58,498 nucleotides of DNA from Chiloscyllium plagiosum (lineage: Eukaryota). How positions within the stretch are numbered: the stretch's first letter is position 1; every line of letters starts with the position of its first letter. Both the position numbers and the translations under genes were made by a program. The stretch covers positions 84,733,730 through 84,792,227 of the forward strand of contig NC_057718.1 in the NCBI RefSeq assembly GCF_004010195.1. Direction: 5' to 3'. Shown here in pieces: positions 1,477 to 57,659 of the stretch. The notes beneath the pieces are model-generated. The model saw only the letters and a program-made list of their open reading frames with translations, ran no database searches and was not told the DNA's origin.

Positions 1477-1618
1477 AAGCAAATCCTGGGTGTACTGGAA
1501 ATCTGAAATGAAAACAGAGTGCTGGAGAAACTCAGTGAGTTAACCTGAAGAATTTAACTGTCTCCCTTTCCATAGATGCTGCCAGATCTGCTAAATTTTG
1601 CCAGCACTTTCTGCTTTA
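1477..1618. mobile_element. PLE-derived short element, family 3, inverted/rearranged, degenerate
   Basis: cagagtgctggagaaactcag arm and the complementary ctgctaaattttgccagcactttctg arm; related to 55545-55675. Confidence 0.5.
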
Positions 1619-2616
1619 ATTAAACCACCTTGTATCTGTCCAAAAAACAACAACAAATGGAACTGGGATGTTCTGATTTTTAAATTGCTAAATATGAAAG
1701 GAATGAGGTTCAAGGTTGAACTCAGAAGTCATCACTTATGGTATTTTATAGAAAATGTTATACAGTTACCAAACCACAAGCAAACTTCAGGATCCTCATT
1801 GCATCTCATAATTTGGAGAATAACTGGCACATTAAGCAGAAGACAAAGAGAATTCCAGAGAGCTTTGGCATTCTTGGTTTGGTCCAGATGAAGAGGTGAA
1901 TGAACCCTCAAGACTGTGAAATCAAGCAGTCAAATCGGAGACTGAATAAGAACTCTTGATTAAAAGTCTTGACAAACTACAGTGTTACGTTACTTGCTTT
2001 GTTTTTATTATCTCACAGTAAACATTACATCTTTTGGTGTAGTTCTTCCAGTTACTCACTGGATGCTCAAATTTCTGTTTAGTTACTGTTCTCAATAGAA
2101 TTCTTAACACCAATAGCCTCTTCTTGCAATAAAAAGTGTGTTTATACTGTACATTATCTTTTTGGAATGCAGAATGTAGGAGCTTGGGTTTCTATAAGGA
2201 TTTGAATTGATCTGATTTATTATTATCATGTGTATCGAGAATACAGTGAAAAGTAGTGTTTTGCGTGCCATGCAGGCAAAAACATACCTTACGTAGGTCC
2301 ATTAGAGTAATAGAATACAATGCAAAAAAAAGTAGAACGATTATAATAGATGAGTCCAGTCTGAACTGAAATTTGTATCAAATTTGTGATTAATTTAGGT
2401 GCAGAAAAGATTCAGGAGAATGTGTCCAGAATTATGAACTTTTGTTATAATAATAGATTGAAGAAGTTGGAACTGTTTCCTTGGAGAACAAAAGTCGAGG
2501 GGAGGTTTGTAAAAAGGTACAAACACAGAATTCCAGGAAACTCAGCCATTGCTTTAAACAAAAATGTATTCATATTCATGAGGGGCCTGGACAAAGTGAA
2601 TAGGAAGAAAATATTG

Positions 2617-2905
2617 GATGGCACCATGGCTCAGTGGTTAGCACTGCTGCCTCACAGCAACAGGGTCCCAGGTTGGATTCCAGCCTCAGGCGACTGTCTG
2701 TGTTGGGTTTTTAACATTCTCCCTGTGTCTGCATGGGTTTCCTCCCACAGTCCAAAAATGTGCAGATCAGGTGAATTGGCCATGCTCAATTGCCCATAGT
2801 GTTAGGTGCATTAGTCAGAGGGAAATGGGTCTGGGTGGGTCTCGGTGTGGACTGGTTGGGCTGAAGGGCCTGTTTCTGCACTGTAGGGAATCTAATCTAA
2901 TCTAA
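2617..2905 (+). mobile_element. HE1-type tRNA-derived V-SINE
   Basis: A box tggctcagtgg, B-box-like ggttggattcc, V-domain-like core, CR1-like tail, (tctaa)n end. Confidence 0.85.
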
Positions 2906-3253
2906 AATACTCCAAGTGGCGAAGGCACAGTGGTGCCTCGGAATCCGAATTTAGTTCGTTCCAGGAGGCTGTTTGGATTGCGAAAAGTTCGGATTCTGAA
3001 ACTATTTTCGCCATATGAAATAATGGAAAGTGAACTAATCCGTTTCTGGACCCAATAAAACACATTTCCAAGACAGTTTTAACTGCAAATACACATGGTT
3101 AAGGTAAAGTAAGATGAGTAAATGACCTAAATATCAAGTAATAATAATAAAAACAAGAAATAAATGTACTAACATGAAAATAACTTCATATACCTTAGTG
3201 AGGAGTGCTAATGGTGCATGTGGAAGCTGGAGAGGAGGAAGGAGGGAGAGGGT

Positions 3254-5125
3254 TTACTGCTTGGAAGGTGAGTCACCTTCCATAATTACATCAGGTAATT
3301 ATGCCTCTGCTGTTTGCTCTCTTTGTCTCTTCATTGTCGTAACACTAAGACCACTTGTAGAGGGCTCACTGGACTGGCTTTCTTTAGAGGTAAAAACAAT
3401 GACTGCAGATGCTGGAAACCAGAGTTTTGATTAGAGTGGTGCTGGAAAAGCACAGCAGTTCATTTAGAGTGGTTCTGGAAAGCTTTCTTTAGAGAACCAC
3501 CTTTCCAAAATTGTCTGGTGTTGGCGACTTTTCTGAATTTTTCTGAAGTGGTCAATCACATTGACATTGAACATGTTTATGCTCCTGTTGACCACTGCCT
3601 TGTTAGGATGCCACTTTCCAACAATGGCCTGTGTTTTAGACCACAGGAAGCATAGTTCCTTAATTTCAGCACTGGAAATGTTTCTTCCTCTTCCTCCTCT
3701 GACGAAATTTCCTCTGCCACTTCTTTTTGCTGTGTCTTGTGGAGGTGCTGAAGTTATTCTGTGGTGAGTTCATTCTTGTGATCCTCCACATCCTCTTCAC
3801 TCACCTCCAAGCCCATGGACTTGCCCAGAGACACAATAACAGGCAGAACAGGTGGTTCTTTGAAGCCTTCAAAGTCTCTCCCTGCAACACATTCAGGCCA
3901 GAGTTTCTTCCAGGCAGAGATCATTGTCCTCAGAGACACTTCCACCTATGCTTTGTCTATGACTCTTAAGCAATGGAGGACATCTTTCCAAAAGTCTGAG
4001 GGTTAGTTCAGTCTTGTTTGTCACCTCAAAGCATCTCTGGAACATAGCCTTGGTGTACAGTTTTTTGAAATTTGAGATAACTTGCTGGTCCATGGGTGGA
4101 TGAGAAGAGTGGTATGGGGGGGGGGGGGGGCAAGAACTTCACCTTGATGAAGCTAAATCCGCCCACCAAATCTTCTTCCAAGCCTGGAGGATGAGCAGGA
4201 GCATTGTCCATCACAAGGAGAGCCTCAGGGGTAGATTCTTTTCCTCAAGATAAGCCTTCACAGACGGGGCAAACTCCTCATGAATCCCCTCAGTGAAGAA
4301 CTGCCTGGTAACCCATGCTTTCATGTTTACCTTCCACATAACATTAAGCTTGCTCTTCATAACATTGTTCTTTTTGAACACGTGGATTCTCTGAGTGGTA
4401 TACAAGCAAAGGCTTTATCTTGCAGTGTCTACTAGCATTACCACACAACAAGAGAGTAAGCCTGTTTTTCATTGGCTTATGGCCTGGTAAAGACTTCTCT
4501 TCCTTAGTTATATAGGTCCTCCTTGGCATCCTTTTTTCCAGAAGAGGCCTGTCTCATCACAATTGAACACCTGTTGTGCCACATACCCCTCAGTGTTCAC
4601 AAACTCACTAAATTTCTTCACAAAATTTGCCGCTGCATCCACATTCGAACTTGCAGCCTCTCGATGCATCACAACACTGTGGATCCCAGTTCTCTTCTTA
4701 AAGTTTTCAAACCACCACCTACTAGCCTTAAACTCATCACTATCAGCACTACTTCCAGGCACGTCTTTTTTAAGATCAGCATACAGGAGCCTGGGTTTCT
4801 CACAAATTATGCCCTCAGAGATGGGATCACCAACCAATTGTTTTTCGTTTATCCACACTAAGAGGAGTTTTTCCACCTCCTCTATAAACGTTGATCTCTA
4901 AGAGGTCACAGACGTAATACCTTTTGCCACATCAGCTGCTTTTATCACTTCTTTATTTTTCAGAATCGTACACACGGTCGATTTTGGCATCTCAAACATG
5001 GCAGCGAGATCAGACACACGCGTACCGCTCTCATGCTTAGCGATAAGTTCTTTCTTCAACTCAATTGTCATTCTCACGGACTTCCTCTTACTTTTATTTG
5101 CTACACTGCTCTTCTTGGGTGCCAT
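3254..5125 (-). pseudogene. Tigger transposase, frameshifted
   Basis: MAPKK start, psq and CENP-B HTH domains (FKASRWWFENFK), VFNCDETGLFWKK, MDNAPAHP, MDQQVISNFK, C-terminal EGDSPSKQ*; split over at least 7 ORFs. Confidence 0.92.
3390..3481 (-). mobile_element. PLE-derived short insert (family 1), no ribozyme core, nested in Tigger
   Basis: gactgcagatgctgg...gtggtgctggaaaagcacagcag; 13-bp TSD gctttctttagag at 3377-3389 and 3482-3494. Confidence 0.8.
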
Positions 5126-56218: not shown

Positions 56219-56640
56219 ATTTTTTATTTCAAAAATATACTTTATTCATAAATTATTTTGATGATCTGTGCAATTGGTCATGCTGTACATGCATAAACTT
56301 TCCATTTCTTTGCATACAGAGATTGAGTAATCATTTGTATATACAGGTCTGTACATTTAGTATCCATATATTTAGGTGAGGCGTCAGTGGAGCCCACTTA
56401 CTGCGTGGGCCCCCTGTTCTTTGGCAGGCAGACGTTACACGGTGGTCTTTCCCCACCGCGCCTTGGTGACAGCTGCCCCAAGCTTCAGCACGTCCCTCAA
56501 CACGCAGTCCTGGACCTTGGAAAGTGCCAGTCCGCAACACTCAGTCGGGGTCAGCTCCTTCAGCTGGAAGATCAACAGGTTTTGAACAGACCAAAGAGTG
56601 TCTTTCACCAAGCTGATGATCCTCCAGGCACAGTTCAATC
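56219..56640 (-). mobile_element. Tx1/L1-clade 3' fragment
   Basis: NCAWRIISLVKDTLWSVQNLLIFQ...KARWGKTTV*; poly(A) end. Confidence 0.88.
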
Positions 56641-56749
56641 TGAAAGTAACCTATAATCGCTTAATTAGTCGCTATCACCAATTAATGAAGTTGCTGTTCT
56701 CCTGTGAGGTCACTTTTTTTTTTCTTTTGTGCTGGGTCCCTAATAGAAT

Positions 56750-57022
56750 CCCTACTGAAAGAGGCCATTTGACCCATAAGGTCTGTACTGACCCTCCGAA
56801 GAGCAATCCTCCCAGTCCTCACTCCCACCCTATCCTGCATTTGCCATTGCTAACACACCACGGGCAATTTAGCATGACCAATCTTCATAACCTGCACATC
56901 TTTGGACTGTGGGAGGAGACTGGAGCACTGAGCTGAAATCCGCGATGACATGGGAAAAACGTGCAAACTCCCTGCAGACAGTGACCAAGGCAGCGTGAGG
57001 CAGCAGTGCTAACCATTGGGCA
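56750..57022 (-). mobile_element. HE1-type V-SINE, degenerate
   Basis: Reverse complement of tggttagcactgctgcctcac and of the V domain. Confidence 0.8.
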
Positions 57023-57175
57023 TCCATTTATACCGTGAAAAAGATCTTACAAACTATGAACCGAAAAAAACAAGCAAAAAGCACCTCTTCCCCTCTGCAT
57101 TGAATTGCGTATTCCCATCAAATTCCTCAAACTATATACTCACTCTCACCTTTCTGACCGTGCATAGCTGTTAAT

Positions 57176-57659
57176 GTTATGATTTGGAGATCATGATTTA
57201 TGAGTTGGATTGGGGTGGACAAAGTTAAAAATCACACAACACCAGGTTATAGTCCAACAGGTTTATTTGGAAGCACTAACTTTCGGATCGTTGCTCCTTC
57301 ATCAGGTGGTTGTGGAATATAAGATTGTAAGAGACGGAATTTATAGCAAATGTTTACAGTGCGATGTAACTGAAATTGTATATTGAAAAAGACCTGTGTT
57401 TGTTAAGTCTCTCATCTTTTAGAATGAACAGAATGTTCAGATTGTTCTAATCTTAAAATACGAATTGAGAGATTCTTTCTTGGATTCATGCGGTTTTTGG
57501 GCAAAATAAAATGTAATTCTGCAAGTACAAATTCACCCCACAAACATATGTGCGTGTGCATGTGGGTGTGCTTTTGTGGGGAGTGGGGGTGTGGTTATGA
57601 GTGTCTGTGAGAGTGTGTGTGTGTGTGTGTGTGTGTGTGTGTGTATGTGTATGAGTGTA
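57176..57659 (-). mobile_element. PLE-like family 2 element with near-complete hammerhead motif and (GT)n tract
   Basis: Minus strand CAC-CTGATGA-A-GGAGCAACGATCC-GAAA-GTTA-GTG (core 57277-57305); (GT)n at about 57613-57645. Confidence 0.75.

Follow-up and report, generated by a model that had tools for sequence, protein, structure and literature searches.

Solo hammerhead inserts in a shark genome are terminal-repeat pieces of Penelope-like elements and probably arise by run-off reverse transcription

Short inserts with hammerhead-like motifs recur along a 58,498-nt stretch of Chiloscyllium plagiosum DNA (contig NC_057718.1, positions 84,733,730 to 84,792,227 of the forward strand; hereafter the window). 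They raise two questions: to what kind of mobile element do they belong, and how did they come to be so short? We find that the inserts are terminal-repeat pieces, comprising the hammerhead and a further 60-105 nt, of three protein-coding families (A, B and C) of Penelope-like elements (PLEs). We further propose that most of the short inserts are probably run-off complementary DNAs (cDNAs) of the uncleaved 5′ end of PLE messenger RNA (mRNA). A sequence-only reading of the window had taken them instead for non-autonomous, retrozyme-like families.

Self-comparison and inspection yielded 14 related inserts in the window, three of them with a complete minimal core (Table 1). All three cores follow the pattern CUGANGA...GAAA...UH, with a stem II closed by a G10.1-C11.1 pair. 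Four cores had been named in the sequence-only reading; three are complete as described there, while the fourth, at 57277-57305(-) in family B, is near-complete, with a broken stem II and a non-palindromic tetramer, AGUU. Family C has no complete core within the window. The motif is not a product of chance, because descriptor and exact-core counts both far exceed their controls. A strict hammerhead descriptor gave 24 matches in a 600-kb genome sample and 0 in each of five Markov controls. Exact pattern searches of the 3.56-Gb genome returned 48,404 family A cores, 4,100 family B cores, 43 family C cores and 12,392 cores of a further A subfamily (GGGC-CUGU-GCCC), against 0 in every case for the reversed patterns. 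Extrapolating from 168 copies in 962 kb, family A arms number ~600,000 genome-wide. Both the derivation of these minimal type I hammerheads from PLEs, seen in the core layout and in the linkage to GIY-YIG endonucleases described below, and their great abundance had been anticipated in the earlier reading. An Rfam scan of the window (E ≤ 5) reported no hammerhead family and just weak hairpin matches at palindromes, as expected for motifs without helix III.

The extra A after the core and the 3-4-bp stem I, features described earlier, are indeed present. Among 295 descriptor matches, the extra nucleotide occurs in every one and is A in 292; a palindromic tetramer that would permit dimers, ACGU or AGCU, occurs in 239, the commonest exceptions being CpG-type changes. 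Stem II, read off the descriptor output as was stem I, differs yet pairs between four families (GGGC/GCCC, GGAGC/GCUCC, GGGUC/GACCC and GUUACC/GGUGAC), in agreement with the sequence-only reading. Stem I likewise pairs between families (AUUC/GA(U/A)U, CAC/GUG and AGUU/AACU), and differences among the common family A variants are confined to loop II and N7. These compensatory changes, a comparison across only four families, point to a hammerhead fold that is kept by selection in the source elements and is probably a passenger in the stubs. Free-energy folding of the dimer neither favoured the double-hammerhead pairing nor singled out the active one. Minimal PLE hammerheads have been reported to show low activity as dimers (PMC4209133). 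The cores described here have predicted cut sites, and the ribozyme is predicted to require either a dimer or the element's own protein.

Three further observations concern the motif itself. The fourth hammerhead family, absent from the window, has a 6-bp stem II and U or C as its extra nucleotide (loci L148:9735-9768 and L061:9352-9385). The AUG in loop II of family A (34290(-) and 54252(-)) opens a 26-codon open reading frame (ORF) across the predicted cut site, and family B has an AATAAA 10 nt past its own.

What the inserts are is settled by their continuity with coding elements. One ORF in the window (32125-32886) carries CNRKKCKTC, a CX2-5CxxC linker of the type that joins reverse transcriptase (RT) to endonuclease, which was found in family A only. 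The GIY-YIG protein of the PLE copy at 32182-32871 gave 123,113 first-look genome candidates, of which 150 were scored; matches with the longest apparent open frames were rejected as N gaps. In 23 of 28 natural ORF-linked copies, the family A core follows the GIY-YIG match by 203-268 nt. It lies nearer in the other five, and all three of these that were inspected have internal deletions. RT (with its YIDD motif), GIY-YIG and untranslated region (UTR) are colinear at locus L199. For families B and C the linkage seen is to the endonuclease only: ~730 nt upstream of family B reaches the GIY-YIG C-terminus at L107, and the upstream continuation of family C enters GIY-YIG at L227. On its other side, the family A tail runs into an ORF that begins MPSLKKLSSS ~165 nt past the core, and this ORF-start region has 428 exact matches in the genome. 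The module of hammerhead and tail flanks the coding element on both sides, in the manner of a PLE pseudo-long terminal repeat (pLTR). Every loop variant checked (UUAU, UCAU, UAAU, UUUU, AUAU and CUGU) has ORF-linked members, including the variants of the window cores at 34277 (L048) and 54239 (L112). Placement in the Neptune clade is suggested by a single feature, the linker motif.

The shape of the insertions was studied in an unbiased sample of one hundred 10-kb stretches placed at round coordinates, with 962,266 non-N bases in all. Family A copies were located by their 3′ part, which brought in core-less ones as well; 168 were found, and after exclusion of 10 beside gaps or edges, 158 were analysed. 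Positions are numbered from the first C of the core, which puts the cut site near +28. The 5′ ends of 80 of the 158 copies fall between -10 and +9. Between -10 and -1 alone there are 43 (~0.06 per nt), compared with ~0.004 per nt farther upstream, and 22 copies extend beyond -20 into the PLE 3′ UTR. The cut site shows no peak of 5′ ends in this sample, five copies ending at +26 to +30. The 92 youngest family A copies repeat the pattern, with 51 ends between -10 and +9, 16 in the UTR and four at the cut site. In a sample of 27 family B copies, seven end at -8/-9, four at -3, six farther upstream and ten in the core or below. The 3′ ends of copies are bimodal, at two sites ~35 nt apart.

Nearly half of the family A copies (77/158) have a head-to-head inverted arm. 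Exactly one tail is present in 64 of 75 head-to-head pairs from all the DNA analysed, against 37.5 expected if the arms were independent, and the two arms belong to the same subfamily (1.2 diagnostic-letter differences versus 4.4 when shuffled; 74 pairs). Target-site duplications (TSDs) of at least 8 bp flank 61 of 157 copies but only 2 of 470 mismatched pairs. Within the window, where at least 12 inserts had been claimed, most with TSDs of 8-15 bp, the larger count of 14 stands and eight do have one (12-15 bp in seven, an exact 8 bp in one); the other six have none above background, a score of at least 12 being reached by 2 of 300 random pairs. Together, TSDs, tail and inverted arms support insertion by PLE enzymes, as had been supposed. 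Further, at loci picked by their ORF-start pattern, ORF-start pieces are often fused directly to positions -4 to 0 of a following stub.

The boundary itself falls on an A, at -4 within TCATTC in family A and TCAGTT in family C, and at -8 within TCCACA in family B. In families A and C this A doubles as the first base of stem I. We take all three contexts to match Initiator consensus motifs; a downstream promoter element (DPE) motif at the expected spacing, looked for by eye, was not found. Genome-wide, 7,719 copies begin at -4 with a non-templated letter at -5, and in 4,260 of them (55%) that letter is G, where ~26% would be expected among non-C letters. Among control copies beginning at -3, G occupies the corresponding place in 12 of the first 100 among the matches listed (hand count), most of those being inversion junctions joined via TTC/GAA microhomology. 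In flanks without element words, G was found in 13 of 23 cases against a background of 0.266 (p=0.002), and the arrangement TSD, G, ATTC occurs at L319 and L322.

We propose the following route from element to stub. PLE mRNA would begin at the Initiator-like A at -4, the first base of stem I, and would offer sites for priming close to its 5′ end as well as at its 3′ end. The element's RT-endonuclease would nick the target and start cDNA synthesis internally, from either of the two tail sites close to the RNA 5′ end; reverse transcription would then run off after 95-135 nt, often adding a top-strand G as a signature of cap or template end, and the product would be integrated as a stub. When priming occurs on both nicked strands, with one tail site of the same RNA used for each, the two cDNAs could join through 2-4 nt of microhomology, leaving a TSD-flanked palindrome whose arms lie head to head and which carries a single tail. 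The rarer long, variably truncated copies would come from priming at the module's 3′ copy. Cleavage cannot define the insert ends, because the stubs span the cut site.

Several of these steps have published counterparts. In the Anolis PLE, both target strands are nicked and extended, RT initiates internally at two sites that bound the tail, and insertion in vitro proceeds without hammerhead cleavage, which occurs only with the protein (PMC11167929). Drosophila Penelope has an Initiator-type start inside its pLTR (Schostak et al. 2008, PMC2377424), and an untemplated 5′ G in L1 has been read as a possible sign of the cap (PMC9341517).

We speculate, with slightly less than even confidence, that the stubs are the PLE counterpart of prematurely integrated strong-stop DNA: a capped mRNA would start with the first base of stem I, both nicks would be primed by an RT-endonuclease dimer using the two tail sites of a single RNA, and each run-off cDNA would then prime the other. 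If so, one step would account for the inverted pLTR, for the lone tail and for solo hammerheads in their hundreds of thousands. The ribozyme at +1 would then act as a switch, stripping the RNA of its cap together with a 32-nt leader, and not as a cutter of unit-length RNA.

Several observations weigh against a run-off origin. The 5′ ends spread over ~20 nt, and copies bearing the ORF start do not all begin at -4: judged by eye, of ~13 with the core region, eight end at -4 to +14, one more at +28, three at -14 to -20, and two have long UTR. No intact full-length element or intact ORF was seen in the assembly, which has gaps. The excess of G is also less clean than its totals suggest. The 13 of 23 include one duplicated locus (L309/L310) and two mis-sorted flanks, inverted arms template part of the excess at several listed junctions, and G is frequent at -3 (6/9) and -2 (4/8) as well, in small local counts. 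The extra G therefore marks the template end more safely than the cap, and we adopt that safer reading, while regarding an origin from the cap as likely.

RNA reads add to these reservations. They came from a raw poly(A) single-cell run, of which ~2% was used and which possibly derives from a related species. Loose read ends cluster at -4, 0 and +5. The reads nevertheless lie on both strands, 95% continue into unrelated flanks, and within this fraction of one run there was neither an observed transcription start nor a molecule ending at the cut site. They represent passenger transcription that echoes the boundary and reveal neither start site nor cleavage. As a separate matter, the tail of the CUGU-loop subfamily contains AATAAA (L341:1600-1621), and 50 poly(A) reads, possibly from one molecule, end in a run of A immediately after it, so that stubs of this kind may supply host transcripts with poly(A) sites.

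Could the boundary instead be an ordinary hot spot of 5′ truncation, where RT that started from the 3′ module on full-length or read-through RNA falls off past the hammerhead, owing to RNA structure or a bound protein? Upstream-containing templates do exist, as the copies that enter the 3′ UTR attest; strong 5′ truncation is typical of PLEs (PMC8557442), and the boundary falls on the 5′ edge of stem I. A hairpin, however, should halt the enzyme before stem II (+20) and not beyond it, and stem I, with its 3-4 bp, would already be open by then. A stall also leaves both the extra G at -5 and the joins of -4 to 0 with ORF-start pieces unexplained. We consider this explanation unlikely. Far harder to sustain is the idea that the hammerhead cleaves the RNA before reverse transcription and so sets the insert ends. 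Conservation of the core, stem II and palindrome, with stems that covary across families, is what it has to offer, but the inserts hold sequence on either side of the cut site, hardly any end there (five of 158), no poly(A) read does, and the Anolis PLE inserts in vitro without cleavage (PMC11167929). We give it almost no credence.

The remaining explanation is that of the sequence-only reading, in which the 95-135-nt stubs are themselves retrozyme-like or short interspersed element (SINE)-like masters that are transcribed and then copied by PLE proteins acting in trans, perhaps through circles made by self-cleavage. Stubs outnumber ORF-start copies by ~100:1 (48,404 versus 428 exact matches), retrozymes have been reported as PLE derivatives, including one from a chondrichthyan (Li et al. 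2026, 10.64898/2026.07.22.740005), and a 224-nt deletion unit with a hammerhead occurs at 40 places in the assembly. Against this, every family and every loop variant checked has ORF-linked members, so that no independent non-coding family was found, and copies reach into the 3′ UTR. Neither the window nor the 168 sampled copies contain head-to-tail hammerhead units or arrays; eight same-strand neighbours lie within 1 kb among the 168, at irregular spacing. Expression was covered by poly(A) reads and contigs, in which small circular RNAs would go unnoticed. A circular template would have no reason to stop at -4, no 5′ peak marks the cut site, and the stubs lack the ORF-start region that the Anolis PLE protein requires on its template (PMC11167929). 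By published criteria, namely head-to-tail units and an independent non-coding family, the window inserts are not retrozymes (PMC7229834; 10.64898/2026.07.22.740005), and we think it quite improbable that stub masters account for them. Run-off from the 5′ end of PLE mRNA remains our preferred explanation.

The 224-nt unit deserves separate mention. This head-to-tail arrangement in the GGGC-CUGU-GCCC subfamily has a 4-bp Watson-Crick stem I and at first resembled a true retrozyme, but we treat it as unverified. The window does not contain it, and its 40 junctions in the assembly (for example L332:1307-1884; L331-L360) are nearly absent from independent reads: in four independent read or contig sets the junction has a depth of ~2, compared with 62 reads for the normal UTR. 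N gaps lie within 600 nt at 11 of 30 loci with the unit, and many arrays are patchworks. Given these gaps and the scarce read support, the unit is perhaps a gap-filling artefact; a young retrozyme is the other possibility. The CUGU-loop subfamily also has members with normal UTR and GIY-YIG (L349).

Table 1. PLE-derived inserts and hammerhead cores in the window
Feature	Position	Strand	Details
Family C head-to-head remnant	1477..1615	.	CUGAAGA at 1545-1551; stem II gone; no TSD above background
Family A tail piece without core	3389..3483	-	13-bp TSD
Old family A copy	8569..8689	-	Core decayed; TSD not found
Family A head-to-head pair	28827..29009	.	Degenerate cores; TSD 8 bp exact (12 with one mismatch)
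Young family A copy	31719..31807	-	Clipped at +2 of core; without tail; TSD not found
5′-truncated PLE copy, ~700 bp	32182..32871	-	CX4CXXC linker and GIY-YIG (PF01541); internal deletion joins to family A tail; 12-bp TSD 32170-32181 / 32872-32883
Family A stub	34217..34308	-	Begins at -4 of core; without tail; 12-bp TSD 34205-34216 / 34309-34320
Complete minimal hammerhead core, family A	34277..34304	-	CUGAAGA-A-GGGC(UUAU)GCCC-GAA-ACGU-C; predicted cut after 34277; layout as in PMC4209133
Family B 5′-truncated PLE end	36066..36500	+	~350 nt of 3′ UTR; upstream portion 36066-36251 inverted
Complete minimal hammerhead core, family B	36418..36446	+	CUGAUGA-A-GGAG(CAGCA)CUCC-GAA-AGCU-A; predicted cut after 36446
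Family A head-to-head pair	50357..50526	.	One arm tailed; core clipped at +4; 12-bp TSD
Family B head-to-head pair	52770..52955	.	One arm tailed; cores clipped; 12-bp TSD
Family A copy	53731..53863	-	Degenerate core; short inverted tail tip on 5′ side; 15-bp TSD
Family A stub with tail	54142..54270	-	Begins at -4/-3 of core; 14-bp TSD 54126-54139 / 54270-54283
Complete minimal hammerhead core, family A	54239..54266	-	CUGAAGA-A-GGGC(UAAU)GCCC-GAA-ACGU-C; predicted cut after 54239
Family C copy	55540..55672	-	Core clipped and decayed; TSD not found
Family B 5′-truncated PLE end	57204..57633	-	~330 nt of 3′ UTR; near-complete core 57277-57305, stem II broken

The window holds other mobile elements among which these inserts lie. 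An inverted repeat of ~35 bp (54116-54294 and 55673-55707) encloses 1.4 kb and resembles the termini of a small DNA transposon; its left copy took in the family A stub at 54142-54270, an insertion that duplicated 14 bp of the repeat. A decayed long repeat is present as two opposite copies, 25326-28595(+) and 31877-37831(-), which are 71-82% alike, and several PLE inserts lie inside the second. That copy also contains an integrase-like peptide (32890-33154), and the repeat is presumably a Gypsy-type retrotransposon. A remnant of a Tigger/pogo-type transposase, with CENP-B_N and HTH_Tnp_Tc5 domains, lies at 4508-5386(-). The 123-codon open frame at 40527-40898(+), which resembles a host exon, had no Pfam or Atlas match.

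The value of the stubs lies in sample size: tens of thousands of near-identical insertions have junctions that record how PLE integration ends. They touch on the role of the hammerhead and on the origin of the inverted repeat and the tail, and the -4 boundary, the extra G and the one-tail rule yield predictions that can be tested directly. They also suggest that scans counting motifs as 'retrozymes' can mainly be tallying dead-end PLE stubs. Our literature search found no paper on these shark families or on an extra or cap-type G at the ends of PLE stubs; Repbase, Dfam and published supplements may already contain the families.

Solo minimal hammerheads of truncated PLEs, extra A included, have been known since 2014 (Cervera & de la Pena 2014, PMC4209133); what is new is the likely route by which the stubs form. 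The metazoan PLE motifs described there share with ours a type I core without helix III, a palindromic 15.1-16.1 tetramer, an extra nucleotide between 9 and 10.1, and the G10.1-C11.1 pair. Thousands of solo motifs were ascribed to truncated PLEs, and close opposite-strand pairs were noted. The differences are the short stem II here (4-5 bp) and the copy number, with ~4,000-9,000 copies in coelacanth and Xenopus compared with 48,404 exact matches of one variant in the present genome; sharks are not named in the main-text passages of that paper compared here.

Endonuclease-bearing (EN+) PLEs of the Neptune clade (Craig et al. 2021, PMC8557442; Arkhipova et al. 2013, PMC3846280) have in common with these families an RT with a C-terminal GIY-YIG domain, the CX2-5CxxC linker (family A) and a pLTR. 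They also share a 30-40-bp tail at one end, an inverted 5′ copy, TSDs of 8-15 bp and internal deletions. Here, in contrast, about half of the copies are reduced to the module of 95-135 nt, whose 5′ boundary is sharp and preceded by an extra G. The Poseidon element of Anolis (PAc; Frangieh et al. 2024, PMC11167929) offers a mechanistic parallel to the proposed route: two internal RT start sites define its tail, both target strands are extended, the hammerhead lies just upstream of the RT start sites, and uncleaved RNA serves as template. The PAc ORF starts in stem II, whereas the long ORF here begins ~165 nt past the core and the loop-II AUG gives only 26 codons; where genomic stubs end on their 5′ side is not discussed in the passages of that paper compared here.

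Non-LTR retrozymes (Cervera & de la Pena 2020, PMC7229834; Li et al. 2026, 10.64898/2026.07.22.740005) likewise combine a type I hammerhead and sequence related to PLE terminal repeats in a non-coding stub. Theirs are units of ~150-450 bp that are repeated head to tail in tandem and expressed as circles, whereas the inserts in the window are shorter, stand alone or in head-to-head pairs, and run collinear with coding PLEs.

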